From Methyloligella sp. GL2 (GTDB lineage: Bacteria > Pseudomonadota > Alphaproteobacteria > Rhizobiales > Methyloligellaceae): DNA of 40,000 nucleotides. Below are positions 23 through 32,934 of this stretch, piece after piece. Made by a program: the position numbers and the translations under genes. A model generated the notes under the pieces. The model was given only the letters and a program-made list of their open reading frames with translations. It had not been told where the DNA came from and did no database searches. The stretch is from NCBI RefSeq assembly GCF_013341275.1, contig NZ_CP054476.1, positions 2,118,988 to 2,158,987 of the forward strand, read 5' to 3'. Position 1 is the first letter of the stretch, and each line of letters starts with the position of its first letter.

Positions 23-553
23 CTACTCCACCTTGCGGATCGCCACGTTGATGCGCGGCGCGACGACGCCGGTGAGCTGCAGCAATACCGGTTTGGCTTC
101 GACCTCGAAGCGTACGCTCTTCTTCACGCCGCGGCAGTGGGGCGCGCCGGAGTGATCGCTGGATTCGATGGCCTTGCCGTCCTGCACCAGCTCGATCCAG
201 CCGCCCGACGAGATGGTGACTTGATAAAGCCCGGGGCTTTCCGGCGCCGCAAACCGGACCGTGCCGGCGTAATCCCCGACGAGATAGGTCTCAGGCTTTA
301 CCGCCAGCTCGACCTTGTCTTTCCGCTCCAGGCCGAGCTGGAAGGCGGTCTCATGCAGCGCACCTTCTTCGGCCCCGGAGGCAAGCTTCGGCAAGTCCTC
401 CGCCTGGAAGGCCGCCTGCTCGGCCGCGAGAGACCATTTCATGCCCTCGCAATCGCCCGCCTCCTCGGCCAGGACACCGCTGCTACCGGCAAAGCTCAGC
501 ATGGCGAGGCCGAGCCCGACCAAAGCGGATCGTGTTTTCCCGTTGATGCGCAT
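23..553 (-). CDS. secreted hypothetical protein (176 aa), co-transcribed with the TonB-dependent receptor
   Basis: N-terminal signal-peptide-like segment (MRINGKTRSALVGLGLAMLSFAGSSGVLA). Two Cys and an HSGAPHC motif. Its ATG (553-551) shares one base with the receptor TGA (555-553). No family recognised. Confidence 0.6.
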   Translation of the reverse strand: MRINGKTRSALVGLGLAMLSFAGSSGVLAEEAGDCEGMKWSLAAEQAAFQAEDLPKLASGAEEGALHETAFQLGLERKDKVELAVKPETYLVGDYAGTVRFAAPESPGLYQVTISSGGWIELVQDGKAIESSDHSGAPHCRGVKKSVRFEVEAKPVLLQLTGVVAPRINVAIRKVE

Positions 554-2859
554 CAGAAGGTCGCTTTGAGGTTGGCATAGAACATACGTCCGGCCTCCGG
601 GAAGCCTTCGGTCAGCTCATAATTCTGATCCAGAAGGTTGGTGGCGCCGAGGCCTACCGTCACAGTGTCGGAGTAACGATACTCCGCCTGCAGGTTGACC
701 AGGGCGTAGGAGCCGAGGCTGGCATAGTTCGGCGTGCGTGGCAGCGCGCCCGAAAGCAGCGAGCTCGAAGAGCTTGTGATCAGGCTGTAGCGGCTGGAGG
801 CGAGCTCCAGATTGGGCGTGATGGTCAGCTTGTCGGTGGCATCCCAGGCCAGATAGACGAAGCCCTCGTGCTGGGGCGTACCTTCCGGTTTAGCGCCTTT
901 GGTCTCGTAGTCGAAATCGCGGTTCAGATACGTGTAGTTGCCGCCGACACGCAGCCGCTTATTGATGGTCCAGTCGACAGAGAATTCGACGCCCTTATAG
1001 GTGCCATCGATATTCTGGTTCTGGATTGCGGTGCTGCCGCTGCTGGAGACATAGACCGGCTGAATCGAATCCTTCAGGTCGGAATAGAACACCGCGCCGG
1101 AGAGCTTCACCGTATTGTTGAATAGCGTGTCGCTCGCGCCAATCTCGTAATTGATCGCCCGCTCCGGCCCCAAATCGGGGTTCGGGTCGACCAGGCCGAA
1201 GCGCGTGCTGAAGCGCTCGAACATGGTCGGGAAGCGGGTCCGGTCGGAGACGGTGGCGTGCAGCTTTCCGGTGTCGGAATAGCTGTAGATGGCGCCGCCC
1301 TGATAGTCGAAGGCGTGGGTGGTCGAGGTCGGGTAGTTGAACAGCCCGTCGTCATAGTCTTGCGCCTGCACCACTTCGAGCTGGTTGAAGGCGATGCCGC
1401 CGATGAAGTCGAGGCGCGATGTGGCGTGGAAGGTGTTCTCCGCCGCGACCGACCAGGTATCCTCGACATTCTCCTGCACCGGCTCGACGAAATTGGAGCC
1501 ATCCGGTGCATCGTGGGACCATTCCTTGTGGTCGTCGCGCCGGTAATGCACCGCGGTCTTGAAGGTGTTCATCGGCATCAGATCCGTGCCGAACTCCACC
1601 GAGCCGCCATAGGCGTAATCCTGATAGTAGCTGTTGAAGGTGCGGAAGCCTTCCTGCGTCGTGTAGCTCGCATCGTCATAGGACGAGAGCAGATTGTCGA
1701 AGGTGTTGTAGTAGGCGTTGGTCTTCACATAGGACTTGTTGCCGAGCTTGGTCTTCGACAGCCAAGCCGCGCTCTGCATGTCCCAATAGGGCCAGCTCCA
1801 ATAGCGCGGGCCCTGCACCACCTGCCCCTTCACATGCAGAGGCGCGCTCTTGTCGCCGGATTGCTTGGTGTAGTTGAAGCTGTATTCGTCGGTGGCGTTC
1901 GGGGTGATGCCGAACTTGGCGTTCAGCCGCCAATCCTTGGCGTTGGAATGATTGCGCGCGCCGCCATCTTCGTTCGCCCGCAGCACAGGATCGAAATCCT
2001 CCGACATCCACCAGTGATCCTGGTCGCGGATGGTGCCGCTGACCTGCGCGTAATAATGCTTCTGCCTCGTGCCGGTGAAGGCATAGCCGTTCCAGACCGC
2101 CAGCGAGCCGAGATCGCCGTCGAACTCGAAGCCGGTCCGGGCTTCGATCTCCAGCGGCTTGGTGGGACGGCGGGACACCATGTTGATGGCGCCGCCCATG
2201 CCGCCCGGTCCGTCGAGCACCGAGACGTAGCCCTTCTGCACCTGGATCTCGGAGAGGTCGGGGGTGAGGAAGCGGTTATAGTCCAGCCGGTTGTCGGCGG
2301 GCAGGTAAAGCCGCACGCCGTCCATGTAGAGCGGCACGCGATAGCGATTGAAGCCGCGCACGAAGATGTCGCGCTCGTTCCGGCTGCCGCCGGTATTCTG
2401 CATGGTCACGCCGGGCACGATGCTGAGCGCCTGATCGAGCGTGTTCTTGTTGTAGGTCCACATCGTCTTGTTGGTGATGACGCTGCCGCCGATCTGGTCG
2501 AGCTCGCCGAGGGTGAAGATGCCCCGTGCGCCCGGATCGCCTGCGACCGTGGCCTCGCTCCCCTGCTCGGCGGTGCCCGGCGCCCCGCCGGTGGCCGGCG
2601 CGGGCGTGCTGGCCGGCGCATAGGTTCGCGGCCTCGCCGGTGCGGGCGGTTCGGCCACCACCACGATGGGCGGCAGCACGCTAACGTCGGAGGCGGAGTA
2701 ATCGCCGCCGGAGGTCAGGTCGGCCGGTACGCCAGCGGCGCCATTGATGATCGAGGTCTGAGACGATGGATCCTGAGACGCCTCTTGAGCGTGCCCGGAA
2801 AAAGGCACAACGAGACTGGTCGCGGCGCTCAGCAGCGCCACGCGCGAGAATTGCAACAC
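553..2859 (-). CDS. TonB-dependent outer-membrane receptor (768 aa)
   Basis: Signal peptide, then a Pro/Ala-rich linker with a TonB-box-like LPPIVVVA. Plug-domain motifs (IFVRGF, PLYMDGVRL, VLDGPGGMGGAINMV). Beta-barrel ending in the canonical terminal aromatic (YANLKATF). GTG start. Confidence 0.9.
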   Translation of the reverse strand: MLQFSRVALLSAATSLVVPFSGHAQEASQDPSSQTSIINGAAGVPADLTSGGDYSASDVSVLPPIVVVAEPPAPARPRTYAPASTPAPATGGAPGTAEQGSEATVAGDPGARGIFTLGELDQIGGSVITNKTMWTYNKNTLDQALSIVPGVTMQNTGGSRNERDIFVRGFNRYRVPLYMDGVRLYLPADNRLDYNRFLTPDLSEIQVQKGYVSVLDGPGGMGGAINMVSRRPTKPLEIEARTGFEFDGDLGSLAVWNGYAFTGTRQKHYYAQVSGTIRDQDHWWMSEDFDPVLRANEDGGARNHSNAKDWRLNAKFGITPNATDEYSFNYTKQSGDKSAPLHVKGQVVQGPRYWSWPYWDMQSAAWLSKTKLGNKSYVKTNAYYNTFDNLLSSYDDASYTTQEGFRTFNSYYQDYAYGGSVEFGTDLMPMNTFKTAVHYRRDDHKEWSHDAPDGSNFVEPVQENVEDTWSVAAENTFHATSRLDFIGGIAFNQLEVVQAQDYDDGLFNYPTSTTHAFDYQGGAIYSYSDTGKLHATVSDRTRFPTMFERFSTRFGLVDPNPDLGPERAINYEIGASDTLFNNTVKLSGAVFYSDLKDSIQPVYVSSSGSTAIQNQNIDGTYKGVEFSVDWTINKRLRVGGNYTYLNRDFDYETKGAKPEGTPQHEGFVYLAWDATDKLTITPNLELASSRYSLITSSSSSLLSGALPRTPNYASLGSYALVNLQAEYRYSDTVTVGLGATNLLDQNYELTEGFPEAGRMFYANLKATF

Positions 2860-2893: not shown

Positions 2894-2917
2894 CGTTATA
2901 TCGTTAACGATATAGCG
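2894..2917. promoter_or_regulatory. Mo-box-like (ModE-type) operator palindrome
   Basis: CGTTATAT-CGTTAACG-ATATAGCG. The core TATATCGTTAACGATATA (2897-2914) is a perfect 18-bp palindrome. It has the 8+8+8 architecture and the left half-site CGTTATAT that I recall for the E. coli modA operator. It lies about 35-60 nt upstream of the receptor start and about 90 nt upstream of the ModE-like gene. Confidence 0.55.
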
Positions 2918-3009: not shown

Positions 3010-3423
3010 TTGAGCGCGAAAGCAAAGCCTGCTGCCGAGACGGCAGCGCAAAAGCCGAAGCCGCGCAAGCGCAAGGCGAACCCGAACAGGGTGCCGCGTT
3101 TGCGCATCCGGATCGGCGAAGGGCTGGTGCTCGGTCCCGGCAAGGTCGATCTGTTGGAGACCATCGATCGGACGGGGTCGATCTCGGCGGCGGGGCGCGA
3201 GATGGGCATGTCCTACCGGCGGGCCTGGCTTCTGGTCGATGCGCTGAACCACATGTTCGCCGAACCTTTGGTCGTCGCTTCCCCCGGCGGGGCGAGCGGC
3301 GGCGGCGCTTCGGTTACCGATTACGGGCGCGCCGTGGCGGCCGCCTATCGCCGCGCCGAGGACCGCACGCAAGCGATCATCGAAGAAGAGCTCGGCACGC
3401 TGCCGCAAAGCGCAAAAGACTAG
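3010..3423 (+). CDS. ModE N-terminal-domain-like winged-HTH regulator, no Mop/TOBE domain (137 aa)
   Basis: GSISAAGREMGMSYRRAWLLVDALN ... GGASGGGASVTDYG matches the ModE N-terminal pattern (GSIS..A...G.SY..AW ... GG..GGGA.lT.yG). TTG start with AAGAGGA 8-9 nt upstream. Lys/Pro-rich 30-aa N-terminal extension. The protein ends before any molybdate-binding domain. Confidence 0.8.
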   Translation: MSAKAKPAAETAAQKPKPRKRKANPNRVPRLRIRIGEGLVLGPGKVDLLETIDRTGSISAAGREMGMSYRRAWLLVDALNHMFAEPLVVASPGGASGGGASVTDYGRAVAAAYRRAEDRTQAIIEEELGTLPQSAKD

Positions 3424-3671: not shown

Positions 3672-5090
3672 ATGGAACGCGAAGACCAGAATACCGATTC
3701 GAGTCCGCCCGCTAAGACGGGCACCGAACACCACACCGTCATCGACCGGATTTTCGGCTGGGCCGCATTGGCAGGGGGGCTGGCGCTCGCGTTTATCGCC
3801 GGCAGCTGCCTCACCGCGGCCGACACTTTTCCGGGCAAGCAGATCGCCAACGCCTATCAGGGCGGCAAGGCGCTCTACGAGCAGGCTACCCGCTATGCCG
3901 ACGTGTTCAAGACCGACCTCTGGTACGAGGCGCGCACGGCGGAGCGCGGCGTGGTGGCGAACCAGCCCGACAGAATCGCGCCGGGCGTGACGCTCTATAC
4001 CTCCGGCGAAGAGGCGAAAGCGGTTCTGCTCGGCGCCGATGGCGAGGTACTGCATGAATGGCACCGGCCGTTCAGCACGGTGTGGGACCCCGCACGATCG
4101 AGCATCAAGCAGCCGCAGCCCGATTCCCACGTCTATTTCCGCAAGGCGAAGATGTTTCCCAATGGCGATCTGCTCGCCATCTATGAGGGCAGCGGCGACA
4201 CGCCTTACGGCTATGGCATGGTCAAGCTCGACTGGAACTCCAACGTGCTGTGGAGCTTCTTCGGCCGCACCCATCACGATTTCGACGTCGGGCCGGACGG
4301 GCGCATCTATGTACTGACCCACGGTTTCGAGACCAAGAAAGACCCCTACTTCACCAATCTGGCGGCGACGCGCCTGCTCGATTCCCTGGCGATCCTGTCG
4401 CCGGACGGCGCGCTGCTCGACACTATCCCGCTGTTCGATGCGGTGGTGAACTCCCGCTACAAGCAGCTGATCCACACCGTGTCGAAATACGCCGTCGCCG
4501 ATCCGCTGCATGCCAACGACGTGGATGTGATCACGCCGGAGATGGCTAAGAACTTCCCCTTCGGCGAGCCGGGGCAGCTTCTGGTCTCCTTCCGCGAGCT
4601 CGGCGCGGTGGGTGTGCTGGACCCGAAGACCAAGACGATGGTCTGGGCGACGCGCGGCCCGTGGCTCGGCCAGCACGATCCCGACATTCTGCCCAACGGG
4701 CACATCCTTCTGTTCGACAATTACGGCCAGTTCGGCACCCCGAAATCCACCACCCGAATCCTCGAATTCGATCCCGCCACCATGGAGATCGTCTGGCAGT
4801 ACGGCGGAACCGCCGATCATCCGCTGGGTTCTCTCATACGTGGGTCGCAGGAACGCCTCGAGAATGGGAACACCCTGATCACCGAATCGAGCGCCGGACG
4901 CATTCTCGAAGTGACGCCCGAGGGGCGCATCGTTTGGGAATATGTCGTGCCGGTGCGCGATGGGCCCGCCGGTCAGCCGCCCAAGCTTCCGATCACCTGC
5001 TGGGCGCAACGGCTGGATCCTTCCAGCTTCGATCCGAAGCTTCTCACCACCGAATTGAGCCAGGTGGAACATAAGGAGGAAACGCAATGA
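3672..5090 (+). CDS. arylsulfotransferase-family (ASST-like beta-propeller) protein with N-terminal membrane anchor (472 aa)
   Basis: One TM helix (IFGWAALAGGLALAFIAGSCL). Repeated propeller-type motifs (HHDFDVGPDGRIYVL, HANDVDVI, NGHILLFDN, NGNTLITESSAGRILEVTPEGRIVWEY) typical of proteins annotated as arylsulfotransferase family. Confidence 0.7.
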   Translation: MEREDQNTDSSPPAKTGTEHHTVIDRIFGWAALAGGLALAFIAGSCLTAADTFPGKQIANAYQGGKALYEQATRYADVFKTDLWYEARTAERGVVANQPDRIAPGVTLYTSGEEAKAVLLGADGEVLHEWHRPFSTVWDPARSSIKQPQPDSHVYFRKAKMFPNGDLLAIYEGSGDTPYGYGMVKLDWNSNVLWSFFGRTHHDFDVGPDGRIYVLTHGFETKKDPYFTNLAATRLLDSLAILSPDGALLDTIPLFDAVVNSRYKQLIHTVSKYAVADPLHANDVDVITPEMAKNFPFGEPGQLLVSFRELGAVGVLDPKTKTMVWATRGPWLGQHDPDILPNGHILLFDNYGQFGTPKSTTRILEFDPATMEIVWQYGGTADHPLGSLIRGSQERLENGNTLITESSAGRILEVTPEGRIVWEYVVPVRDGPAGQPPKLPITCWAQRLDPSSFDPKLLTTELSQVEHKEETQ

Positions 5091-5341
5091 AACGTCTTGT
5101 CTCCGTCCTTGCTTTGACGGCACTCGCCGCGAGCTTCTCGACCGCCGCGAGTGCCTATGTCGGCCCCGGCGCCGGGCTCAGCATGCTGGGTGCGTTCTGG
5201 GCACTGATCGTCGCGCTCGGCACCGCGCTGTTCTTCGTGGTGGCCTGGCCGGTGCGCAAGATGCTGCGCCGCTCGCGCAATTCCGGCGCGGCCGAGACCG
5301 GAGCTGCGACGGACGACGCGCAGCGCCCGGACGCCGCGTAA
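5087..5341 (+). CDS. small membrane protein, unknown function (84 aa)
   Basis: ATGA overlap with the upstream stop (5087-5090). Signal or TM segment, then YVGPGAGLSMLGAFWALIVALGTALFFVVAW followed by a basic stretch. Position inside the operon supports coding. Confidence 0.55.
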   Translation: MKRLVSVLALTALAASFSTAASAYVGPGAGLSMLGAFWALIVALGTALFFVVAWPVRKMLRRSRNSGAAETGAATDDAQRPDAA

Positions 5342-5355
5342 GGCGGACGGCTCGC

Positions 5356-6075
5356 ATGGGATTGTTCGATCTGCCATCGCCGGTTTTCGATTATGTCGAC
5401 GGCGCGCTGCTCGGCACGCTGGCGCCGGCTTTGCGCATCGTGATCTGGGCCGCGCTCGGCGCCCTGCTCTCGATGGAGCTGTACCGGGTGCTGTCGCCGC
5501 AAGCCAAGGCCAAGGCGCTGAAGTTGGAACTGCGCGAAGCCCAGCAGAAAGTCGCAAGCTTCGACGGCGAGTTCGAAGATGCCTGGCCGCTGATCAAGCG
5601 GATGCTGGGGCTCGCCTTCAAGCGCATCTTTCTGATCTTCCCCTCCACGCTGATCGCCTCGCTGCCGCTGCTGTTCCTCGTGGTCTGGCTCGATAGCAGC
5701 TACGGCCACCGCTTCCCGGAATTCGGCGAGCCGGCCTCGGTGGAAGCGCCGGCGCCGTTCGAGGGAAAATGGATCGACCGGGGGGAGGACGGCACGCCGC
5801 GGGCGCAAGTCCTCGACAAAGGCAAGGTGGTGGTGGATACACCGCTGAAGGCCGCGATCCCAGTCGTCCACAAGTGGCATTGGTGGAACTTGCTTCTGGG
5901 CAATCGGGCCGGTTACCTCACAGGCGATGCGCCCATCGAGCAAATCTCGATCGGCCTGCCGCAGCGCGACATCTTCACAACAGGGCCGGATTGGGTGCGT
6001 GGCTGGGCGCCCGCCTTCTTCTTGGCCGTACTGCTTTTCGCGATGACGTTGAAATGGATCAGACGAATAGAATAG
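5356..6075 (+). CDS. membrane protein, unknown function (239 aa)
   Basis: AAGGCGGA RBS upstream of the ATG. At least three hydrophobic helices. 3' end overlaps the next gene by 22 nt. No family recognised. Confidence 0.6.
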   Translation: MGLFDLPSPVFDYVDGALLGTLAPALRIVIWAALGALLSMELYRVLSPQAKAKALKLELREAQQKVASFDGEFEDAWPLIKRMLGLAFKRIFLIFPSTLIASLPLLFLVVWLDSSYGHRFPEFGEPASVEAPAPFEGKWIDRGEDGTPRAQVLDKGKVVVDTPLKAAIPVVHKWHWWNLLLGNRAGYLTGDAPIEQISIGLPQRDIFTTGPDWVRGWAPAFFLAVLLFAMTLKWIRRIE

Positions 6076-7220
6076 ATGCGCCGCGCGCGGCGCCCGCAGC
6101 TCCCGACACCGCCCCGGAGATCAGTCTTTGGACCGATCGCCTGGGCGGTTTTATCGAGCGCCATCCGAAACTGATGCGGAAGCTGGCGTCGTGGGAGAAC
6201 AAGGCGCTTGGCGAGCAGCTCGCCGAGACGCAGATTCGCGCGCCGGTCTACGTCACCGGGCTTGCCCGCTCCGGCAGCACGATTCTGCTGGAGCTGCTGA
6301 ACGCGCATCCGGCCTTCGCCAGCCACCGCTACCGCGATTTTCCGGCGGTGATGACGCCGTGGATGTGGAACTGGTTCGTGGACAAGGCCTCCCGCCGCGA
6401 GGCGGCGCCGGCCGAGCGCGCCCATAAGGACCGGCTCAAGGTCACGCCGGAGAGCCCGGAAGCCTTCGAGGAAGTCCTCTGGATGAACTTCTTCGAGGGG
6501 CTGCATGGCGGGGGCGCCGACGAGGTGCTGGACGAGGAGACCTCCAACCCCGAATTCGAGGCGTTCTACCGCGACCATATCCGCAAGATTTTGATGATCC
6601 GCGGCGGGGCACGCTATCTCGCCAAGGCGAATTACCACGTCACCCGACTCGCCTATCTCCACAAGCTGTTTCCCGATGCGCGCTTCGTGGTGCCGATCCG
6701 CGACCCGGTCTGGCATATCGCTTCGCTGATGAAGCAGCATTCGCTGTTCACCCGGCAGCAGGCTTACGATCCGCGGGTGTTGGATCATTTCCGGCGCGCC
6801 GGGCATTTCGAGTTCGGCCTGGGGCGCCGGGCCATTGCCGTCGGTCCGGAGGGCGGCGAGGACATCGAGCAGCTCTGGAAGACAGGCGAAGAGGCCGCCG
6901 GATGGGCGGCGCTGTGGAACCTGGTCTACGGCCATCTGGCCCATCAGCTGCAGTCCAATCCGGAGCTTCTGGCGGCCACCGTCATCGTCCGCTACGAGGA
7001 TCTTTGCGCCAATCCGCGGGCGACGTTCGGCGATATCCTGGCCCATTGCGGACTGAAATCGGGTGGGCTGGCCGATCTCGCCGCCTCCACATTGAGCGCG
7101 CCGGATTACTATCAGCCCAAATTCAGCCGGGCCGATCTGGACGAGATCGAGGCGCGCACGCGGGCCACGGCACGGCTGTTCGGCTATCAGGTCAGAGAGA
7201 AAGCGGCGGCCGGGAGCTAG
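6054..7220 (+). CDS. PAPS-type sulfotransferase family protein (388 aa)
   Basis: 5'-PSB P-loop motif GLARSGSTILLELLNAHP plus a downstream RDP motif (VVPIRDPVWHIASL). The internal ATG at 6054 was chosen because the upstream part of track ORF 5769-7220 is Arg/Gly-rich out-of-frame overlap with the previous gene. Confidence 0.8.
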   Translation: MDQTNRIDAPRAAPAAPDTAPEISLWTDRLGGFIERHPKLMRKLASWENKALGEQLAETQIRAPVYVTGLARSGSTILLELLNAHPAFASHRYRDFPAVMTPWMWNWFVDKASRREAAPAERAHKDRLKVTPESPEAFEEVLWMNFFEGLHGGGADEVLDEETSNPEFEAFYRDHIRKILMIRGGARYLAKANYHVTRLAYLHKLFPDARFVVPIRDPVWHIASLMKQHSLFTRQQAYDPRVLDHFRRAGHFEFGLGRRAIAVGPEGGEDIEQLWKTGEEAAGWAALWNLVYGHLAHQLQSNPELLAATVIVRYEDLCANPRATFGDILAHCGLKSGGLADLAASTLSAPDYYQPKFSRADLDEIEARTRATARLFGYQVREKAAAGS

Positions 7221-12487: not shown

Positions 12488-13297
12488 TCAGGCGCGCATC
12501 GAGGATTGATCGCGCAAGCGCGCCTTGCGCTCGAAGAACAGCGCCTGGCTGACGATCGCCTTCACCGTATCGGGCTGATAGGGCTTGGTGATCAGGAACG
12601 CCGGCTCGGGCCGCTCGCCGGTGAGCAGCCGGTCGGGATAGGCGGTGATGAAGATCACCGGGACCTCGAAACCGCCGAGGATTTCGTTCACCGCATCGAG
12701 GCCGGAGCTGCCGTCGGCAAGCTGGATATCGGCCAGCACCAGGCCGGGCCGGTGTCTCTTCACCGCCTCGACCGCTTCGCCGTGGGTGCGGGCAACCTCG
12801 GTGACGGAATGGCCCAGGGTTTCGACGATGCCTTCCAGATCCATGGCGATCATCGGCTCGTCCTCGATGATCAGCACATCGGTGGCCACCTGCTGGGCGA
12901 TCTCCTGCCCCGCCTCCTCGACCAGCCGGTCGAGCTGATCCTCGCTAACGCCGAGGATCTGAGCGGCTTCGGCGGGCGTGAATCCCTCCACCGAGCAGAG
13001 CAAGAACGCCTGGCGCGGTAGCGGGGTGATGGATTCCAGCTTGCGATCGACGACATTGGCCAGGTCGGTCGAAACGTCCGACTGAAGATTGACGTCGAGG
13101 GAATTCCAGAGCCCGGCGAAGGTGCGGTAAAGCGCGATGCGGGGCTCCAGCTTGGTATTGAAAAGCGAAGGGTCTTCGACAAGAACCTCGAGGGTTGCGG
13201 CGACATAGGCATCGCCGGCTTGCTGGGACCCGGCAAGCGCCCGAGCAAAGCGGCGCAGAAACGGAAGATGGGGCGCGATGGCCTTGGATATGGACAT
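12488..13297 (-). CDS. phyR: PhyR anti-anti-sigma factor (sigma-like N-domain plus receiver domain, 269 aa)
   Basis: N-terminal ECF-sigma-like domain (LPFLRRFARALAGSQQAGDAYV ... FLLCSVEGFTPAEAAQILGVS). C-terminal REC domain (VLIIEDEPMIAMDL ... LVLADIQLADGSSG ... ITKP). Divergent from nepR-ecfG. Confidence 0.95.
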   Translation of the reverse strand: MSISKAIAPHLPFLRRFARALAGSQQAGDAYVAATLEVLVEDPSLFNTKLEPRIALYRTFAGLWNSLDVNLQSDVSTDLANVVDRKLESITPLPRQAFLLCSVEGFTPAEAAQILGVSEDQLDRLVEEAGQEIAQQVATDVLIIEDEPMIAMDLEGIVETLGHSVTEVARTHGEAVEAVKRHRPGLVLADIQLADGSSGLDAVNEILGGFEVPVIFITAYPDRLLTGERPEPAFLITKPYQPDTVKAIVSQALFFERKARLRDQSSMRA

Positions 13298-13397
13298 CTC
13301 AATCCTGAATTTTGGTTTGGCGTTCGCAGGTTAACCCGGTTCCCCCAATGGCATGGCCGGGTGAAGGGGTGCAACTCAATTCGACTACGGGTTAATC

Positions 13398-13423
13398 AAC
13401 ACATATCTTTCGACCGAAGTTCC
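13398..13423 (-). promoter_or_regulatory. candidate EcfG-like box for phyR (GGAAC-N17-TGTT)
   Basis: The minus strand reads GGAAC (13423-13419), a 17-nt spacer, then TGTT (13401-13398). This -35 is the inverted partner of the nepR -35 box (AGTTCC-gcaattcg-GGAACT). The -10 has one mismatch. A second weak option is GGAAC (13343-13339)-N16-CGCC. Confidence 0.3.
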
Positions 13424-13431
13424 GCAATTCG

Positions 13432-13456
13432 GGAACTGATAAAGATTTCAAACGTT
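13432..13456 (+). promoter_or_regulatory. EcfG-type promoter box GGAAC-N16-CGTT upstream of nepR-ecfG (autoregulation)
   Basis: GGAAC at 13432-13436, 16-nt AT-rich spacer (tgataaagatttcaaa), CGTT at 13453-13456, 65 nt before the nepR start. Confidence 0.65.
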
Positions 13457-13520
13457 TTTTCGGCAGTGTTCAGCGTGTCCGCTGTCGGGGAGCGGCAATT
13501 GGGGCGGATAGGGATTCAGT

Positions 13521-13769
13521 GTGAACGAGAAGGAAAAGTCAGAACGCCGGGACGAAAAGCCGGCGGGGAACGAGATGGATATCACCAGCGCAGAGACCGA
13601 GAGCGCAAGTCATACGGAAGAGTTGGAGCGCCAGGGAATGTCCCGGGATCTTCAGGGCCATATCGGACGGCAGCTTCGGGCGTCGTTCGACGAGGTCGCC
13701 CGCGAGCCAATTCCAGATCGCTTTCTTCAGCTCCTGCAAGAGCTTGAGAAGAACGGGCAAAATAAGTGA
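13521..13769 (+). CDS. nepR: NepR anti-sigma factor (82 aa; start uncertain, alternative ATG at 13575)
   Basis: Conserved NepR core IGRQLRASFDEVAREPIPDRFLQLLQELE. Stop overlaps the ecfG GTG start (GTGA, 13766-13769). Confidence 0.85.
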   Translation: MNEKEKSERRDEKPAGNEMDITSAETESASHTEELERQGMSRDLQGHIGRQLRASFDEVAREPIPDRFLQLLQELEKNGQNK

Positions 13770-14323
13770 AGCAACAGGTATCTGCCAGCCTTCGAGACGC
13801 CCTGGTGGGCGAGATGAGTTCCTTGCGCGCCTTCGCCGTGTCGCTTTGCGGCGACAAGGAGCGCGCCGACGATCTCGTGCAGGAGACGCTGTACAAGGCG
13901 TGGAACCATCTGGACTCGTTCCGCGAGGGCACCAATCTCAAGGCTTGGCTGTTCACAATTCTGCGCAACACCTATTTCTCCGAGCGGCGCAAGCGCCGGC
14001 GCGAAGTCGAGGACGCCGACGGCAGCTATGCGGCCAAGCTCTCCACCCGTCCCGAGCAGGACGGCCATATGGATCTACAGGATTTCCGCGAAGCTCTGGC
14101 GCAGCTGCCGGACGATCAGCGCGAGGCGCTGATCCTGGTCGGCGCGGCCGGCTTTTCCTACGAGGAGGCGGCCGATATTTCGGACTGCGCCGTGGGCACC
14201 ATCAAGAGCCGGGTGAATCGCGCCCGCAACCGTCTTGGCGATCTGCTCGACACCAAGGATGCGTCGGGAGACGACTCGACCTTGCGGGCCGCCATCGCCT
14301 CGGCCGGCCCATCCGGACGCTGA
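13766..14323 (+). CDS. ecfG: ECF sigma factor EcfG (ECF15-type general stress sigma, 185 aa)
   Basis: Region 2 is ADDLVQETLYKAWNHLDSFREGTNLKAWLFTILRNTYFSERRK. Region 4 is LPDDQREALILVGAAGFSYEEAADISDCAVGTIKSRVNRARNRL. Translationally coupled to nepR. Confidence 0.9.
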   Translation: MKQQVSASLRDALVGEMSSLRAFAVSLCGDKERADDLVQETLYKAWNHLDSFREGTNLKAWLFTILRNTYFSERRKRRREVEDADGSYAAKLSTRPEQDGHMDLQDFREALAQLPDDQREALILVGAAGFSYEEAADISDCAVGTIKSRVNRARNRLGDLLDTKDASGDDSTLRAAIASAGPSGR

Positions 14324-17816: not shown

Positions 17817-18620
17817 TCAGCGCAGGATAAGCATTTCGCCTTTGCCGAGGGCGGCCATATCGCCCATCAGCCGCTGGGCTTCGCGCCCCAGGCGAACCTT
17901 GATCCCATCGGCTTTCAGCGCGCGTTCCAGCAGATTGAGATAGGTGAACTCGATCACGCCGCAATCGGCATAGGTCGGCAAAATCTGCTTCGGCTTCTTC
18001 TTGAAGATCAGCGAGCCGCGCTTCAGCCCATAGCCGGCATTGCGGCCGACCTTGCCCTGAAACAGGATGGTGCCGGCCACCACGCGGGCGCCAGCATATT
18101 CGCCGGCATCGCCGCCGACGGTGATCAGGCCGCGGCGCATGCGCTCGGCAAGATACGGGCCGGCATTGCCGCCGATAAACAGGCGTCCGCCGCGCATACC
18201 ATGCACCTCACCCACGGTGAGGCCACCTGCCCGCTCGCCGACATTGCCCTTGATGTCGATGGTGCCGTTGGACATGGCCGCGCCGGCATAGGCGGCGGCA
18301 TTGCCCGTCACCTCCAGCGTGCCGCCCTTGAACTTAGCGCCAAGATAAGCACCGGCATCGCCGTCGACCAGGATCTCGCCCTCGCTCGAGCCGGCGCCGA
18401 TACGGTCGCAGCGGTCGGTGGTGCCGAGGAAGCGCAAGCTGGCGGCGTCCTTGCCGGTCACCTTGAAATAGTCGCCGACAGAGGCTGTGCCGGCCAAGGT
18501 CGGGAGCGCCAGGCCGGCGATATCCTTCGCCTTCATCCCGGCCAGGCGGTCGGGGATCAGCGCTGAGAGGTCGAGCGGCTCTTCGGGAGCCTGCTTCAAT
18601 TCGAAAGTCAGGGCGCTCAC
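17817..18620 (-). CDS. fhcC: formyltransferase/hydrolase complex subunit C (FwdC homologue)
   Basis: Repeated beta-helix G-x-x-G motifs (VDGDAGAYLGAKFKGGTLEVTGNAAAYAGAAMSNGTIDIKGNVGERAGG) typical of formylmethanofuran dehydrogenase subunit C. Confidence 0.9.
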   Translation of the reverse strand: MSALTFELKQAPEEPLDLSALIPDRLAGMKAKDIAGLALPTLAGTASVGDYFKVTGKDAASLRFLGTTDRCDRIGAGSSEGEILVDGDAGAYLGAKFKGGTLEVTGNAAAYAGAAMSNGTIDIKGNVGERAGGLTVGEVHGMRGGRLFIGGNAGPYLAERMRRGLITVGGDAGEYAGARVVAGTILFQGKVGRNAGYGLKRGSLIFKKKPKQILPTYADCGVIEFTYLNLLERALKADGIKVRLGREAQRLMGDMAALGKGEMLILR

Positions 18621-19525
18621 GCGATGACCTCCTTCAGATGAAAGTGGTGGGGCCCGAGATTGCCGCCGTAATTGCCGGCCGCAATGCGCAGCACGCCGTC
18701 GCGCGTGCCGCCATCGACAATCGCCTTGATGCCGGCACCCATGGCCTTGGCAATGGCCTCAGGCGTCAGACCGTCGATAACGATCTCCAGCACCGCCTCG
18801 GCATTCATCGGCAGCTCGCTCTTCACCGCGCCCTTCAGGGTCGGGCAATAGGCATCGTTGGTGGAGGCCATCTGGCCCTTATATTTCGAGCCCACCTTGG
18901 AGCCGGAGCGGACGATACCGCCGGGGAACGGGGTGATGATATCGGGCATCGGCGCCATCGCCTTCACCGCGCGCTCGCAAGCCGCCAGCGCGCCGGCATG
19001 GGACTTCGCCACCACCAGCAGGTTGCCGCCGCCGACCGCATCGCGGGTATAGCCGGTGCGGTCCTCGCAGACGAACTCGCCGTCCATCACGGGCACGCGC
19101 CAGAAGCGGCGGCCGTTCAACACTTTCGACATCTGCCAGCCATCGCCGAAGAAGCGCAGCGAATGGCCAAGCTTCAGCCCCTTCTTGGGCGGCAGCCCGG
19201 CGAAGCAGGCGGTTCCGGGACAGGTCAGCACGCATTGGCCGACGCGGTCGCGGAGCTGGGTCTGCAGCTTGCTCTGGCTCATGGTGAAGAGCAGCACGGA
19301 GACGCCGGGGCGTCCGTCATAGGTCTCGCTGCGCGAGAGCGTGCGTTCGATGCCGCCCTCTGCGCCGCAGGCGATCACCGAGGTGGCGAACCCGGTCATG
19401 GTGCGCGCCGCGATATCCGCCCATTTCGCGGTCGGGGCGGTGATGATCACCCGGGTTCCCACCATGGGGAAGGCCTCGGCGAACGTGTCGACGATCGTGA
19501 CGCCTTTGAGCTTTATGTCCGACAT
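18617..19525 (-). CDS. fhcD: formylmethanofuran:H4MPT formyltransferase (Fhc subunit D, Ftr homologue)
   Basis: 302 aa. VTIVDTFAEAFPMVGTRVIITA...GFATSVIACGAEGGIE...VLLFTMS is the Ftr family pattern. Overlaps fhcC by 4 nt. Confidence 0.93.
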   Translation of the reverse strand: MSDIKLKGVTIVDTFAEAFPMVGTRVIITAPTAKWADIAARTMTGFATSVIACGAEGGIERTLSRSETYDGRPGVSVLLFTMSQSKLQTQLRDRVGQCVLTCPGTACFAGLPPKKGLKLGHSLRFFGDGWQMSKVLNGRRFWRVPVMDGEFVCEDRTGYTRDAVGGGNLLVVAKSHAGALAACERAVKAMAPMPDIITPFPGGIVRSGSKVGSKYKGQMASTNDAYCPTLKGAVKSELPMNAEAVLEIVIDGLTPEAIAKAMGAGIKAIVDGGTRDGVLRIAAGNYGGNLGPHHFHLKEVIA

Positions 19526-21147
19526 GGCACCATCTGGAAGCGATCTTCAGTGTTGGCGATATCTTCCGGCACACCGAAGACCTTGGGATCGATACCGTAG
19601 CTTTCGCCGTAGAAATCTTTGACGCGGCGCTCGATCTTGGAATCGAAGCCGGGATCGGCCTGGAACACCTTGCCCCAGGTGACCTCGACGACGTCGCCGT
19701 CGCGCATGATCAGCTTGCCGTCCTTGAACACGTAAGATGCGCGATCGAACATCTCCGCCTTGTTGGGCTTGTCGGTATAGACCGCCACGTCGCCCACGGC
19801 GCCGGGGCTGAGATGGCCGCGATCGGTCAGGCCGAGCAGCTTGGCCGGTGCGGCGCGGGTCATCACGGCAAGATCGGAGAGCGTGATCTCACGCTCGATC
19901 TCGGCCAGGTTGGTGGCCTCCTTGACGCCCTCGGGCAGCTTGTCCAGCCAGCGGGCCCGCTCGTCCTTGTCCATCAAGAGCTGGAAGATCTCCGGATAGC
20001 GGGTGAACAGCGCGCCGTTCGGGTGGTCGGTGGAAAACAGCACCTGCCAGTAGCTGTCGGCGAGGAGGAAGATCTCCAGCCCGATAGCCCATTGCACTGC
20101 GTTGATAAAGCTCTTGGCCTTGTATTTGTAGGGCACCACGCCGGTGCCGTTGCCCTCGCCCTGATACAGCGCCCATTTGCCGGGGCTGGCGGCCTTGCGG
20201 CCGTCGAACTGGCGCAGCACGTCGCCGGAAATGGTGACGGTCTGGCCGAATAGAGGCTGGCCGACATCGACGGTGACATTGGGATGGGCCTTGAGCGCTT
20301 CGACCAGGCGTGGCGCAGCGGAGGAGAAGCCCTTCTCGCCTTCCTTGCCGTAGCTGTAGAACTGGATGTGGGCGAAATGGATCGGCACGCCGTCCGAAGC
20401 TTCTATCGTGGCGATGGCGGTATCGATATTGCCGGCGATGCCGAGATTGTTGCAGTGGACATGGGCCGGGTGCGGCACGCCGAGATCCTGCACCGCATGC
20501 TGCATGGCCTGCACGATCTGCCGCGAGGTAGTGCCGTATTCGGGCACCTCGTCGTCGAGATCGAAGGTGCGGGCATTGAACTTGAAGGCTTCGGCGCCGC
20601 CGGCATTGATCACCTTGAGGCCGATGCCGCGGGCATGCTGCAAGGTCCAGGCGACGTAGTCTTCGATCTCGTTCTTGCTCGCCTTGCGGTGAAGCTGGCG
20701 CAGCGCGAAATCGTCATTGCCGAGGATGATCAGCCCGCCGGTGTCGATCATCGGGATCTGGGCGAGCTCCAGATGGGTCTGGATGGCATGGGTCGGCTGC
20801 ACCGCCGGCTCGATCACCGTTGTGTAGCCCATCTGCGCATAGCGCAGGCCCGTCGCGTAAGCGCCCCAGGAGGACGGGTTGGGCGGGATCGCCACGCCGC
20901 CGGATGCGGCGAGATAGGGAAGCTCCGGCATGAGCTGGCGCGCCAGCGTCACGTTGGAGCCGCCGATATGGGAATGCACGTCGACGGCGCCGGCCATCAC
21001 CACCTTGCCCGAGACATCGTAAGTCTGATCGGGCTGGCGGCCTTCCGGCGCTTCGACGATACGGCCATTGTCGATAAACACGTCGCCAACCGCGTCGCGG
21101 TTATTGACGGGATCGACGACCCGGCCGCCCTTCAAGCGAATAAGCAT
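19513..21147 (-). CDS. fhcA: formyltransferase/hydrolase complex subunit A (FwdA-like amidohydrolase, 544 aa)
   Basis: MLIRLKGGRVVDPVNNRDAVGDVFIDNGRIV...AGAVDVHSHIGG is an amidohydrolase metal motif. ATG at 21147 chosen. The track extension to 21609 overlaps fhcB out of frame and is Arg-rich. Confidence 0.9.
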   Translation of the reverse strand: MLIRLKGGRVVDPVNNRDAVGDVFIDNGRIVEAPEGRQPDQTYDVSGKVVMAGAVDVHSHIGGSNVTLARQLMPELPYLAASGGVAIPPNPSSWGAYATGLRYAQMGYTTVIEPAVQPTHAIQTHLELAQIPMIDTGGLIILGNDDFALRQLHRKASKNEIEDYVAWTLQHARGIGLKVINAGGAEAFKFNARTFDLDDEVPEYGTTSRQIVQAMQHAVQDLGVPHPAHVHCNNLGIAGNIDTAIATIEASDGVPIHFAHIQFYSYGKEGEKGFSSAAPRLVEALKAHPNVTVDVGQPLFGQTVTISGDVLRQFDGRKAASPGKWALYQGEGNGTGVVPYKYKAKSFINAVQWAIGLEIFLLADSYWQVLFSTDHPNGALFTRYPEIFQLLMDKDERARWLDKLPEGVKEATNLAEIEREITLSDLAVMTRAAPAKLLGLTDRGHLSPGAVGDVAVYTDKPNKAEMFDRASYVFKDGKLIMRDGDVVEVTWGKVFQADPGFDSKIERRVKDFYGESYGIDPKVFGVPEDIANTEDRFQMVPCRT

Positions 21148-21149
21148 GC

Positions 21150-22250
21150 TTACGCGGCCTCCTTGGCGTTCAGCTTGGCGCCGATGGCGTCGAGGATGTC
21201 GGAGACTTGCGGCAGGCCGCTGGCTTTGCCCTTGCCGGCGATCATGCCGATACCGGAAATCTCCGGAAGATACAGCGCCGCGTCGTGATCCTCGCCGGGA
21301 ACGCCGACCTCGATGACGATCTTGGCGGCGCGCGGAGCGGCCTGGCCCGGATTGGTGATCAGGATGGTCGGCACACCTTTCGGCGGCTTCACGTCGGAAC
21401 CGCCAAGCGCATCGACCCAGACCAGCGCATCCCCCTCGCCCGACTTCACCAGACGCTCGGCGCTGTAGCGCCAGGCGTCGTGCTCCGGCTTGCCATGAGC
21501 GAAGCTGGTGCGCACGGGCAGCCCGCAGGTCCAGACCGAGCAGAGATTGACGCCGTCGCCATTGCCGGGCGCGGCCACGGTGTAGCCGCCGGCGCGGGTG
21601 TCTTTGCAAAGCTCGCGGATCATATCGAGCACCACATGCAGGCTCGGCTCGTCGAGCTCCAGCGGCGAATAGACGAATACGGCGAAAGCGGAATCCTTCA
21701 GCTTCTTGGCCGCGGTGGCGATGGACTTGCCGAGCGCCGACTCGCCATCGCCGAACGAACGCCCCGCAACCGCGGCGGCGAGCATCGAGATGCCGGTGGC
21801 CAGCGACTGATTGCCGAGATCGACCTTGCTCGACTTGGCCGAGGACGGCACGCCCTTCGGCTTGCAGCCGATGGCGATCAGCTCGCGCGGATTGTCGCCG
21901 GGCCGCGGCAAGGTCTTCTCGGGGAAAATCTTGGTGAGCAGATCGGGATCCGCCTGCAGCGGGGCCTCGCCGAGAACCACCACCCGGTCGGACCGGTTGC
22001 GCAGCTCGCCGAAGCTGACGGGGTTCATGCCCCCTTCGCGCATCAGCCGGCTCGCGCGGGCAATCCCTTCGCCAGCGGCGTGATCCACCACGCCGCCAAT
22101 CTTCTGAGCAAGCGCCAGAGCACTCTGCGCGCCCGCAATATCGGTCATCAGGCCTGCGATGACGGGTAGCTTCGCCTCTGCCAAAAGCTCGGCAGCGCGC
22201 TCCAGCCCGTCCGCTTCCTCAACCTCAGTACCGTCTAAATATACCGCCAT
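21150..22250 (-). CDS. fhcB: formyltransferase/hydrolase complex subunit B (FwdB homologue, 366 aa)
   Basis: FwdB-like fold-family sequence (LPVIAGLMTDIAGAQSALALAQKIGGVVDH). First gene of the minus-strand fhcB-A-D-C run. Confidence 0.88.
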   Translation of the reverse strand: MAVYLDGTEVEEADGLERAAELLAEAKLPVIAGLMTDIAGAQSALALAQKIGGVVDHAAGEGIARASRLMREGGMNPVSFGELRNRSDRVVVLGEAPLQADPDLLTKIFPEKTLPRPGDNPRELIAIGCKPKGVPSSAKSSKVDLGNQSLATGISMLAAAVAGRSFGDGESALGKSIATAAKKLKDSAFAVFVYSPLELDEPSLHVVLDMIRELCKDTRAGGYTVAAPGNGDGVNLCSVWTCGLPVRTSFAHGKPEHDAWRYSAERLVKSGEGDALVWVDALGGSDVKPPKGVPTILITNPGQAAPRAAKIVIEVGVPGEDHDAALYLPEISGIGMIAGKGKASGLPQVSDILDAIGAKLNAKEAA

Positions 22251-22350
22251 GGGGCCGCACCTTTACGAGGAAGCAGATCGCCGCGCAAGCGCTGCGGTGA
22301 CACAGCTCGGCGAGCTCCTCTTCCCGCCGGACGTCGCTCCGGCTCGAACC

Positions 22351-22737: not shown

Positions 22738-22774
22738 GAGAATTTGTCTTTTCGAAATAAGGTGGCGCCGCTGA

Positions 22775-22987: not shown

Positions 22988-23041
22988 CGTTGGCGACTCT
23001 GCTTCTCAGCGTCCCTGACTTTCGTATTTGGTAGTTTCGTT

Positions 23042-26220: not shown

Positions 26221-26231
26221 GAGGAGAGCAA

Positions 26232-27206: not shown

Positions 27207-27231
27207 GCCGCAGCCCTCTCGGATCGACGCC

Positions 27232-32208: not shown

Positions 32209-32225
32209 CTGGATTGTACAGCGTC

Positions 32226-32933: not shown

Positions 32934-32934
32934 A

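Follow-up and report, generated by a model that had tools for sequence, protein, structure and literature searches.

The closest described relatives of the arrangement reported here are the ModE operator of modA in Escherichia coli and the Mo-boxes of the MopA/MopB system of Rhodobacter capsulatus, which are found at mopA-modABC, anfA, and morAB. The published consensus for the ModE operator is atCGnTATATA-N6-TATATAnCGat (PMC545781), and Mo-boxes repress uptake genes as well as Mo-sparing genes (PMC6925177). At E. coli modA and in R. capsulatus, the operator lies near the start of the uptake gene, which fits repression, and in these ModE-type systems the regulator gene adjoins its target. The ModE(S) proteins of Agrobacterium tumefaciens and Sinorhizobium are shorter, alphaproteobacterial, and Mo-box associated, consisting of ~130 to 140 aa with the ModE N-terminal domain only. 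Their targets are reportedly modABC, and in Agrobacterium such short regulators are reported to track molybdenum-cofactor status rather than molybdate itself (Hoffmann et al., Mol Microbiol 2016). Single-domain ModE genes have also been noted in Desulfovibrio (PMC545781).

Mo/W enzymes catalyze the oxidation of formate and nitrite, the reduction of nitrate, and the fixation of nitrogen, and Mo is often nanomolar or lower in soils and fresh water. Models of its uptake nevertheless begin in the periplasm (ModABC, WtpABC, TupABC, MolBC-A) and leave the outer-membrane step unassigned. In one published scheme (PMC4031551, Fig. 6 legend), molybdate is drawn as simply crossing the outer membrane, and the low-affinity MolBC-A system has no reported outer-membrane partner or ModE control (PMC4031551). 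Precedents for active Mo acquisition at or beyond the outer membrane exist in T6SS/IcmP- and siderophore-based systems, although their machinery is wholly unlike that of the receptor described below, to which we found no linked T6SS, IcmP, or siderophore synthesis genes. Metalloregulated TonB-dependent receptors (TBDRs) for substrates other than iron include those of the Zur-ZnuD (Zn), NikR-FrpB4 (Ni), OprC/NosA (Cu), and B12 riboswitch-BtuB pairs. In each of these, an energized receptor is placed under the sensor of its cognate metal or cofactor and is derepressed on shortage, which is the scheme that we propose here. To our knowledge, no metalloregulator-controlled TBDR is known for molybdenum or tungsten. 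We found no description of a Mo-regulated TBDR in the literature searched, although regulon databases such as RegPrecise were not covered and a prior in silico annotation is possible.

The locus studied here lies in a 40-kb stretch of Methyloligella DNA, referred to below as the window. As in E. coli and R. capsulatus, a Mo-box is positioned close to the start of a presumed uptake gene, and a regulator gene is adjacent. In contrast with those systems, the apparent target is an outer-membrane TBDR together with a periplasmic protein of unknown family rather than an inner-membrane ABC transporter, and the adjacent regulator lacks Mop (molybdate-binding) domains. This regulator shares its length, domain content, and Mo-box association with the ModE(S) proteins of Agrobacterium and Sinorhizobium; however, its adjacent target is the TBDR operon rather than modABC, and sensing of the cofactor is assumed only by analogy.

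A Mo-box between a receptor operon and a short modE gene

The Mo-box occupies positions 2894 to 2917 of the window (not assigned to a strand), where the sequence reads CGTTATATCGTTAACGATATAGCG and divides into the 24-bp arrangement CGTTATAT-CGTTAACG-ATATAGCG. Positions 4 to 21 of this element (TATATCGTTAACGATATA) form a perfect 18-bp palindrome, and the only nonpalindromic pair in the 24-mer is the T at position 3 and the G at position 22. All 14 specified positions of the pattern CGnTATAT-N8-ATATAnCG are matched. The window contains a single match to CGNTATAT-N8-ATATANCG, even when three mismatches are tolerated; an exact match was found in 0 of 100 dinucleotide-preserving shuffles of the window, and by our own arithmetic ~1.5e-5 exact matches are expected per 40 kb of sequence with 64% G+C. 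The layout and half-sites are shared with the E. coli modA operator (CGTTATAT-N8-ACATAACG), which we read from the genome sequence (NC_000913.3) as CGTTATATTGTCGCCTACATAACG, ~20 nt upstream of the modA ATG. The element thus matches a ModE operator in both sequence and layout, whereas its binding by a ModE-family protein is inferred in the absence of binding data.

The edge of the box is 34 nt before the GTG start codon of the TBDR gene, so that the element spans 35 to 58 nt from the first base of that codon (position 2859), and 92 to 93 nt separate it from the TTG start (position 3010) of the divergent modE-like gene. An earlier note, made without database searches, had described a 24-bp element with a perfect central 18-bp palindrome, located 35 to 60 nt upstream of the receptor start and about 90 nt from a divergent gene for a ModE N-terminal domain (3010 to 3423). 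It had also stated that ModE operators share the 8+8+8 layout, that the E. coli modA operator begins identically, and that no modABC genes are present. All of these claims held, the last at the Pfam level for all larger open reading frames (ORFs) of the window.

The TBDR gene (553 to 2859, minus strand) encodes 768 aa from its GTG start. The predicted protein has a plug domain (PF07715, E value of 1.2e-16) and a TonB_dep_Rec barrel domain that matches the barrel model over its full length (PF00593, E value of 2.9e-36). Its N terminus (LQFSRVALLSAATSLVVPFSGHA/QE) resembles a signal peptide, and a TonB-box-like motif, L62-P63-P64-x-x-V67 (LPPIVVVA), appeared by eye to be invariant in 15 orthologues. 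These four features identify the protein as a TonB-dependent receptor, although TonB dependence itself is inferred. Independent gene calls on a public contig recovered the same three genes (TBDR, partner, and ModE-N), the TBDR is 100% identical to a protein of Methyloligella sp. 2.7D, and its ribosome-binding site and GTG start are conserved in the intergenic alignment of relatives. Among solved structures, the TBDR resembles FhuA in the plug region only (51 bits).

The TBDR falls below the cutoff of every specific NCBIfam receptor model, including any for siderophore, heme, B12, or copper receptors; its best score was 129 bits for TIGR01783 (cutoff, 223.5), and equivalog models were far below their cutoffs, although generic siderophore and heme receptor subfamilies were also matched. 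The intergenic region between the TBDR and modE(S) genes of the window contains no match to a Fur, Irr, or Mur consensus, and such matches were present in only 0, 1, and 2, respectively, of 77 upstream regions of orthologous TBDR genes. Iron control of the TBDR was discarded on the basis of these nearly empty motif scans and subthreshold family scores. The earlier note had named clustering of the receptor with Fe-siderophore or B12 receptors and regulation by Fur as an outcome that would refute its reading. This outcome was not met, since no curated siderophore, heme, or B12 model was reached and no Fur-, Irr-, or Mur-type sites were found.

Immediately downstream of the TBDR gene is a gene for a 176-aa secreted protein with a signal peptide (23 to 553, minus strand). 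Since its ATG overlaps the TBDR stop codon (ATGA), the two genes are expected to be cotranscribed and translationally coupled, and since the gene that follows is convergent, the operon consists of these two genes only.

With a gap of just 34 nt between the box and the TBDR start codon, the core promoter or transcription start of the operon must overlap the box. A candidate promoter was identified by eye at 2895 to 2923 on the minus strand, with a -35 element TCGACT (2923 to 2918), a 17-nt spacer, and a -10 element TATAAC (2900 to 2895); in this reading, the spacer and the -10 element are covered by the Mo-box. A strict consensus promoter scan missed this candidate because the final base of its -10 element is C, and that it is a real promoter remains an inference. 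Riboswitch control of the TBDR was excluded, as the leader is at most ~30 nt and gave no Rfam match.

On the other strand, a putative sigma-70-type promoter at 2946 to 2973 faces the modE(S) gene, with a -35 element TTTACG, a 16-nt spacer, and an extended -10 element, TG-n-TATATT, whose hexamer (TATATT) occupies 2968 to 2973 and is preceded by TG. The promoter scan found 1 such site against 0.1 expected, and a CAnTATAnCAG island is retained in four relatives that likewise have a divergent modE(S) gene; that this promoter drives the modE(S) gene is inferred. The earlier note had reported a further GTTATAT half-site at about 2964 to 2970. Its position is corrected here to 2966 to 2972. It coincides with the -10 region of the putative modE(S) promoter, and we dropped it as an operator component, since both the promoter scan and the alignment of relatives make a -10 element more likely.

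The divergent gene (3010 to 3423, plus strand, TTG start) encodes a 137-aa regulator with a predicted ModE N-terminal winged-helix DNA-binding domain. The protein scored 83.1 bits against TIGR00637 ModE_repress (E value of 1.2e-23; the curated cutoff of 98.5 was not reached) and 28.5 bits, above the cutoff, against PF00126, and it is 37% identical to residues 19 to 89 of E. coli ModE. It is thus clearly homologous to the ModE DNA-binding domain despite being under the curated TIGR00637 threshold. No TOBE/Mop match was found, and the protein stops after the DNA-binding domain; given the absence of C-terminal tandem Mop/TOBE domains, we classed it as ModE(S) type rather than full-length ModE. 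Since it has no Mo-sensing domain, what it senses is inferred solely by analogy with Agrobacterium. It also remains possible that a full-length ModE or Mop protein is encoded elsewhere in the Methyloligella genome, which a 40-kb window cannot exclude. Sulfotransferase genes lie beside modE(S) at 3672 to 7220; they were considered as metallophore-modifying enzymes and dropped, as they adjoin the receptor at no other locus.

Conservation of the box and its links to other Mo genes

The comparison set comprised 80 orthologous TBDR loci (43 to 72% identity) from taxa including Hyphomicrobium, Methylobacterium, Nitrobacter, Mesorhizobium, sphingomonads, and Steroidobacter. The receptor as a whole occurs in roughly 575 genomes. 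With up to two mismatches allowed, a Mo-box was present within 500 nt in 64 of 77 usable upstream regions and within 700 nt upstream in 65 of 78 loci. A box fell within -350 to +120 of the TBDR ORF start in 50 of 73 loci, relative to 0.01 in shuffles. Its density was 1.9 per kb upstream of the TBDR, compared with 0.17 per kb in other intergenic DNA and 0.03 per kb in coding DNA. Although the information content at the searched positions is inflated by site selection, spacer positions 9 and 10 are ~91 to 93% pyrimidine and positions 15 and 16 are ~91 to 93% purine, and neither pair was part of the search pattern. The box is also the main invariant island in aligned, otherwise diverged intergenic regions. 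About 13 of the 77 loci lack a canonical box, and some of these carry TATAT palindromes with other spacing. These data show that box and TBDR have stayed paired in several proteobacterial orders, which is much stronger support than the one site available to the earlier note could give.

Homologues of modE(S) were located within 4 kb of the TBDR gene in 22 of the 80 loci. Most of the maximal ORFs of these adjacent modE genes are 118 to 181 aa and end soon after the DNA-binding domain; three are longer (256 to 289 aa), and we read them as 5' overextensions because the matches are near their C-terminal ends. Since ORF-based clustering of neighbors was contaminated by shadow ORFs in the GC-rich receptor gene, neighboring genes were rechecked by direct tblastn.

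The same motif is used at other Mo-related genes near these receptors. The modA gene adjoins the TBDR in five loci. In one locus (L009), the TBDR and partner genes are followed by a Mo-box and then by modA, modB, modC, and modE(S), with the box 15 nt upstream of modA and with modA, modB, and modC all above their NCBIfam equivalog cutoffs; in another locus (L066), a Mo-box lies in the modA-modE(S) intergenic region. This link between modABC and the box rests on related genomes, as modABC of Methyloligella is outside the window.

In ~10 loci, from Mesorhizobium, Rhizobiaceae, Aquamicrobium, Ancylobacter, and Methylopila, the TBDR gene adjoins a Peripla_BP_2-FecCD-ATPase-TrmO_N operon that is absent from the window. 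Its closest described counterpart is MolBC-A of Haemophilus influenzae (HI1470-1472), a type II ABC importer of molybdate and tungstate. It carries its own Mo-box or shares that of the receptor in six of these loci: three (L048, L059, and L065) have a separate box, and three (L051, L052, and L058) use the TBDR's box. In two further loci (L064 and L071), the operon is upstream of the TBDR gene and codirectional with it, and the sole box precedes the TBDR. H. influenzae MolA (3psa/3psh, E value of 6e-22) is the third-best solved relative of the linked binding protein and the only one that has been functionally characterized. The similarity is moderate, covers the C-terminal half, and is based on the domain set and overall match rather than on ligand-binding residues. 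MolA binds molybdate and tungstate with low affinity (PMC4031551), so the link to MolA falls short of proving free molybdate to be the ligand. A ModE motif has likewise been found before an "Fe ABC transporter" in M. acetivorans (PMC12327845).

Four loci from methylotrophs or autotrophs have a Mo-box in front of a LysR gene that neighbors a metal-free NAD-formate dehydrogenase. The use of the motif at modABC, MolA-like ABC, and metal-free formate dehydrogenase loci is shown by these comparisons, whereas its fit to a Mo-sparing logic at the LysR genes is inferred. No metallophore biosynthesis or export genes were found among the conserved neighbors in the 80 loci.

Proposed regulation and rival explanations

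We consider it likely (probability of roughly 0.72) that the Mo-box is an operator over the promoter of a TBDR operon that imports a Mo or W species. The site, its geometry, the domain content of the genes, and the conservation of the box before this receptor family are shown. Which protein binds the box, whether binding represses, which signal is sensed, which species is transported, and what the partner does are all inferred, and in the literature searched we found no measurements of expression, binding, or transport for members of this TBDR family. In the proposed mechanism, the box would serve as a ModE-family repressor operator over the core promoter of the two-gene minus-strand operon for the TBDR and the small secreted beta-sandwich protein. 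When Mo is sufficient, a ModE-type dimer would occupy the box and block RNA polymerase; the likeliest candidate is the divergent 137-aa ModE(S) protein encoded 92 nt away, and by analogy with Agrobacterium ModE(S), it would sense sufficiency of the molybdenum cofactor. Scarcity of Mo (or W) would lift repression of the operon, and the TonB-energized receptor would draw a Mo/W species out of the medium and concentrate it in the periplasm. Uptake would then be completed by ModABC or, in other lineages, by a MolA-like type II ABC importer. The suggestion in the earlier note that receptor expression responds to molybdate or tungstate is therefore supported computationally, with both regulation and DNA binding remaining inferences.

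The rival that we regard as possible retains this operator and regulation but holds that the cargo is a Mo/W-metallophore complex, such as a catecholate "molybdophore," rather than the free oxyanion. Most characterized TonB-dependent receptors carry chelates, the linked inner-membrane systems are of the FecCD/Peripla_BP_2 class usually used for chelates, and the low affinity of MolA for free molybdate leaves room for another ligand (PMC4031551). However, the conserved neighborhoods at the 80 loci offer no metallophore genes, modA, whose product binds free molybdate, is the neighbor in five loci, and the sulfotransferase genes near modE(S) in the window do not accompany the receptor at other loci. 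Metallophore uptake, which the earlier note preferred, thus stands as only one possible substrate class, and the MolA-like binding proteins linked to the receptor speak at least equally for the free oxyanion. It is less probable, and in our view unlikely, that the Mo-box is genuine and the receptor imports a cargo other than Mo or W that is needed under Mo shortage, for instance a different cofactor or the iron or vanadium used by Mo-independent isoenzymes. In favor of this possibility, Mo-boxes also control Mo-sparing genes, including the LysR gene beside metal-free formate dehydrogenase, and they occur at anfA and alternative nitrogenases (PMC6925177, PMC12327845); the generic siderophore and heme subfamily matches of the receptor point the same way. 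Against it, many lineages show the receptor gene physically linked to modA, modABC, modE(S), or MolA-like importers, and iron-regulator motifs are essentially absent upstream. Moreover, alternative nitrogenases are not known in most of the host genera considered here.

The remaining rival, that the palindrome is bound by an iron or general regulator unrelated to Mo, or is merely an AT-rich promoter element, with its likeness to a Mo-box coincidental, appears very unlikely. TATAT-rich palindromes do resemble -10 elements, binding data are lacking, and the short regulator scores under the curated ModE-domain cutoff. Yet the 14 of 14 pattern matches compare with none expected by chance, different orders share the CG-n-TATAT/ATATA-n-CG arms with conserved spacing, and the same motif precedes modA. 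The adjacency of a ModE-N gene in 22 loci and the near absence of Fur, Irr, and Mur motifs also argue against coincidence.

Beyond control of the operon by a Mo-box, we lean toward a bolder interpretation, for which the balance of evidence is only modestly favorable. According to this interpretation, the TBDR and its 176-aa periplasmic beta-sandwich partner would constitute an unrecognized but widespread energy-dependent route for Mo/W across the Gram-negative outer membrane; in other lineages, the receptor would work together with MolA-like type II ABC importers and with YaeB/TrmO_N-like proteins. All of these components would answer to ModE or ModE(S) within a larger Mo starvation regulon, through which methylotrophs would also change over to metal-free formate dehydrogenase. 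The occurrence of the pairing in dozens of other bacteria suggests active outer-membrane uptake of Mo/W instead of passive diffusion; if so, the textbook view of molybdate diffusion via porins would fail for many Proteobacteria of soil and water. A receptor family under inferred Mo-regulator control in dozens of genera, among them methylotrophs, nitrite oxidizers, rhizobia, and sphingomonads, offers a concrete and testable candidate for the missing outer-membrane step. With regulation inferred, it would also add to the genes known to be controlled by short ModE(S) proteins. Candidates for further study include the new partner family, the MolA-like importers, for which the receptor is a likely physiological context, and the Mo-sparing switch to metal-free formate dehydrogenase.

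The secreted partner family

The 176-aa partner protein has no Pfam or NCBIfam match. In 45 to 47 of the 80 loci, a homologue is encoded beside the TBDR. More than 1,000 proteins of ~175 aa belong to the family, and C35, C140, W119, and K145 are invariant among them. AlphaFold2 predicts a beta-sandwich fold for the partner (pLDDT of 86.5), for which the PDB offers only generic matches. If the proposed route is correct, the family would represent a new Mo/W-handling protein. Members of this family are in places misannotated as "homogentisate 1,2-dioxygenase."

The Mo-box and the receptor operon

The 24-bp element at 2894-2917, CGTTATATCGTTAACGATATAGCG, is a perfect palindrome over its central 18 bp, and 11 of 12 base pairs are symmetric across the whole 24-mer. 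It was the single match in the 40-kb window to the pattern CGNTATAT-N8-ATATANCG, even with three mismatches permitted, and no exact match arose in 100 dinucleotide-preserving shuffles. The operator directly upstream of E. coli modA (NC_000913.3), CGTTATATTGTCGCCTACATAACG, has the same 8+8+8 layout, and the box qualifies as an ordinary Mo-box. The palindrome and the E. coli operator given in the earlier note both held, as did, on domain searches, its description of the flanking genes as a TonB-dependent receptor (TBDR) and a divergent ModE-N gene.

The TBDR (553-2859, minus strand; 768 amino acids [aa], GTG start) contains a plug and a barrel domain and is 100% identical to a protein of Methyloligella sp. 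2.7D. The divergent gene (3010-3423, plus strand) encodes a 137-aa ModE DNA-binding-domain protein (TIGR00637, E = 1.2e-23) with 37% identity to residues 19-89 of E. coli ModE. Since the start ATG of a 176-aa ORF with a signal peptide (23-553, minus strand), here called the partner, overlaps the TBDR stop codon (ATGA) and the gene beyond it is convergent, we infer that the TBDR and this small secreted protein form an operon and are translationally coupled.

The TBDR GTG lies 34 nt beyond the end of the box, and intergenic alignment indicates that the ribosome-binding site and GTG are kept in relatives, so the TBDR core promoter must overlap the box. A candidate promoter was read by eye on the minus strand (-35 TCGACT, 2923-2918; -10 TATAAC, 2900-2895); it was absent from the output of a strict consensus promoter scan. 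With this putative promoter, the box would cover the spacer and -10, which may represent classical repressor-site geometry. On the plus strand, the consensus scan identified a promoter at 2946-2973 (TTTACG, 16 nt, TG-n-TATATT), and this island is kept in four relatives that also have the divergent modE gene. The extra GTTATAT half-site of the earlier note is present, but at 2966-2972, inside this promoter; given the scan match and the island's conservation alongside divergent modE, we set it aside as an operator part and reread it as the modE -10. No Rfam families were found at the locus, hence no Moco riboswitch, and no modABC genes were found in the window, as the earlier note had stated.

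The partner is one of >1000 members of an uncharacterized family of roughly 175-aa proteins, for which Pfam has no model; some members are misnamed "homogentisate 1,2-dioxygenase" in several databases. C35 and C140 (a Cys pair), W119, and K145 are invariant in the family, and H134 and R144 nearly so. An AlphaFold2 model (pLDDT 86.5, confident) predicts a beta-sandwich with only generic PDB neighbors. A partner homolog lies beside the receptor in 45 to 47 of 80 related loci; that it hands off cargo in the periplasm is a guess.

Conservation of the box upstream of receptor orthologs

A profile from 15 orthologs yielded 80 TBDR loci (receptor identity, 43-72%) from Methyloligella, Filomicrobium, Hyphomicrobium, Rhodomicrobium, Methylobacterium/Methylorubrum, Afipia, Nitrobacter, Mesorhizobium, Pseudaminobacter, Aquamicrobium, Ancylobacter, Methylopila, Hansschlegelia, Azospirillum, many Sphingomonadales, and Steroidobacter-like Gammaproteobacteria. 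In almost every locus, a Mo-box-like palindrome immediately precedes the receptor gene. Boxes with ≤2 mismatches were found within 700 nt upstream in 65/78 loci, within 500 nt in 64/77, and inside [-350, +120] of the TBDR ORF start in 50/73, compared with 0.01 in shuffles. Their density was 1.9 per kb upstream of the receptor, relative to 0.17 per kb in other intergenic DNA and 0.03 per kb in coding DNA, and the gap to the first in-frame start codon was mostly 10-100 nt. Aligned intergenic regions, otherwise diverged, retain the box as their main invariant block. The derived consensus, CGyTATATyc-N4-grATATArCG, is also conserved outside the search pattern, as pyrimidine at positions 9-10 and purine at 15-16. 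Although experimental data are lacking, the site very likely works as a Mo-box that controls the receptor operon.

Some loci without a canonical box carry TATAT palindromes with altered spacing. Variant operators were observed upstream of the receptor in loci L068 (3873-3890), L060 (3891-3914), and L009 (3832-3867), and sphingomonads have a form with a 4-nt spacer, TGTATAT-GGCC-ATATACA. One Hyphomicrobium MAG has a perfect 17-nt inverted repeat containing two GCTATATAGC palindromes upstream of the receptor and a canonical box solely in front of modA. Many loci have two or more boxes in tandem (L001 [3833 and 3863], L021, L039, L043, L047, L053, L062, and L073), while the window has one; these could reflect cooperative binding or dual control of divergent genes. 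Receptor orthologs (46-50% identity) also occur in MAGs labeled Phycisphaerae, Propionicimonas, Vicinamibacterales, and Marinimicrobia (L044, L049, L069, and L072). Propionicimonas is a Gram-positive genus, and these occurrences probably reflect binning contamination rather than true distribution.

Links to the Mo regulon and the regulator

A short modE gene lies ≤4 kb from the receptor in 22/80 loci, mostly as short maximal ORFs; we read the three longer ORFs as 5' over-extensions because the matches sit near their C-terminal ends. The Hyphomicrobium locus L009 has the order receptor, partner, Mo-box, modA, modB, modC, modE(S), where modE(S) denotes a short DNA-binding-domain-only gene, and its modA, modB, and modC all exceed NCBIfam equivalog cutoffs. 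In L066, modA and modE(S) flank the box, and five loci have modA next to the receptor.

A Peripla_BP_2-FecCD-ATPase-TrmO_N operon neighbors the receptor in about ten loci. This operon carries a separate Mo-box in L048 (6184-9638), L059 (5993-9393), and L065 (6137-9509); in L051, L052, and L058 it lies upstream of the TBDR and the receptor's box is common to both; and in L064 and L071 (1-3750) it is upstream and co-directional, the sole box being in front of the receptor. The best solved relatives of the Peripla_BP_2 protein include Haemophilus influenzae MolA (3psa/3psh, E = 6e-22), which binds molybdate and tungstate for the type II importer MolBC-A (PMC4031551). The operon is a candidate partner system at the inner membrane. 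In Methanosarcina acetivorans, an "Fe ABC transporter" is listed as having a ModE motif upstream (PMC12327845). The TrmO_N member is YaeB-like (3okx-like).

Methylorubrum, Hansschlegelia, Ancylobacter, and Methylopila (L040, 7679; L057, about 9450; L064, 9577; L071, 9675) have an additional Mo-box ahead of a LysR gene, which neighbors the gene for a metal-free NAD-formate dehydrogenase of 401 aa (PDB 2gsd/2nad, E of about 1e-230). This is the pattern expected for Mo-sparing substitution and may indicate a Mo-box-controlled switch to a Mo-independent enzyme under Mo scarcity. At least one of these accessory genes is present in 64/80 loci. These several independent gene links make it very likely that the motif is the operator of the Mo regulon in these organisms, albeit without binding data. 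Separately, in the Xanthobacteraceae MAG locus L054 (1824-2860), some 2 kb from the receptor, a Mo-box without mismatches immediately precedes a DUF4213/DUF364 "putative heavy-metal chelation" gene.

The adjacent 137-aa regulator consists of the DNA-binding domain alone; because it lacks the Mop domains required of full-length ModE, we class it as ModE(S). Single-domain ModE genes of unknown sensing mechanism have long been on record (PMC545781). Agrobacterium ModE(S) reportedly binds Mo-boxes at modA, and its repression is reported to need Moco biosynthesis rather than molybdate directly (Hoffmann et al., Mol Microbiol 2016). On this analogy, the receptor operon would respond to Moco status.

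Rival readings and genomic setting

Iron control of the receptor is unlikely. The receptor reached no specific siderophore, heme, B12, or copper receptor model, and its likeness to solved receptors is confined to the plug; moreover, the window's intergenic region contains no Fur, Irr, or Mur consensus site, and such sites occurred in 0, 1, and 2 of 77 orthologous regions, respectively. The condition that the earlier note held would refute its reading, a receptor grouping with characterized Fe-siderophore or B12 receptors and controlled by Fur, therefore does not hold here. That the box is a chance resemblance is all but excluded by its conservation.

The nature of the cargo is less certain. 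Importers of the FecCD class mostly carry chelates, and the affinity of MolA is low (PMC4031551), both consistent with a metallophore chelate; in contrast, metallophore biosynthesis genes were linked in none of the 80 loci, and the modA and MolA-like neighbors favor a free oxyanion. The evidence does not decide between them. A cargo other than Mo/W, needed under Mo shortage, is conceivable but less probable. On balance, we lean toward import of a Mo/W species, without experimental support.

Strong comparative evidence thus supports the earlier note's Mo/W-responsive TBDR, with regulation and transport inferred, and we consider a Mo-box-controlled TBDR operon for Mo/W uptake likely (probability, ~0.72), though experimentally untested. 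Zur-ZnuD, NikR-FrpB4, and riboswitch-BtuB similarly place TonB-dependent receptors under metal-sensor-type control. The full-text literature searched contained no report linking ModE or a Mo-box to a TBDR, and within that scope we found no precedent for a Mo/W-sensor-controlled TBDR; earlier regulon-database annotation is not excluded. In published uptake schemes, the starting point is periplasmic molybdate (PMC4031551).

Two genes follow modE(S) at 3672-7220, one arylsulfotransferase-like (3672-5090) and one of the sulfotransferase family (5769-7220); neither is kept beside the TBDR in any of the 80 loci, so a connection with the receptor is improbable. A 735-aa plus-strand ORF (37138-39345) has high GC3 and no Pfam match. 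Elsewhere, at 17817-36466 and 12488-14323, the window holds H4MPT-pathway C1 genes for formaldehyde oxidation (fhcC/D/A-like, mtdB-like, mch, fae, and genes of cofactor biosynthesis) and a PhyR/EcfG cluster of the general stress response. Taken together, these clusters fit a methylotroph whose formate production makes it reliant on formate dehydrogenases.
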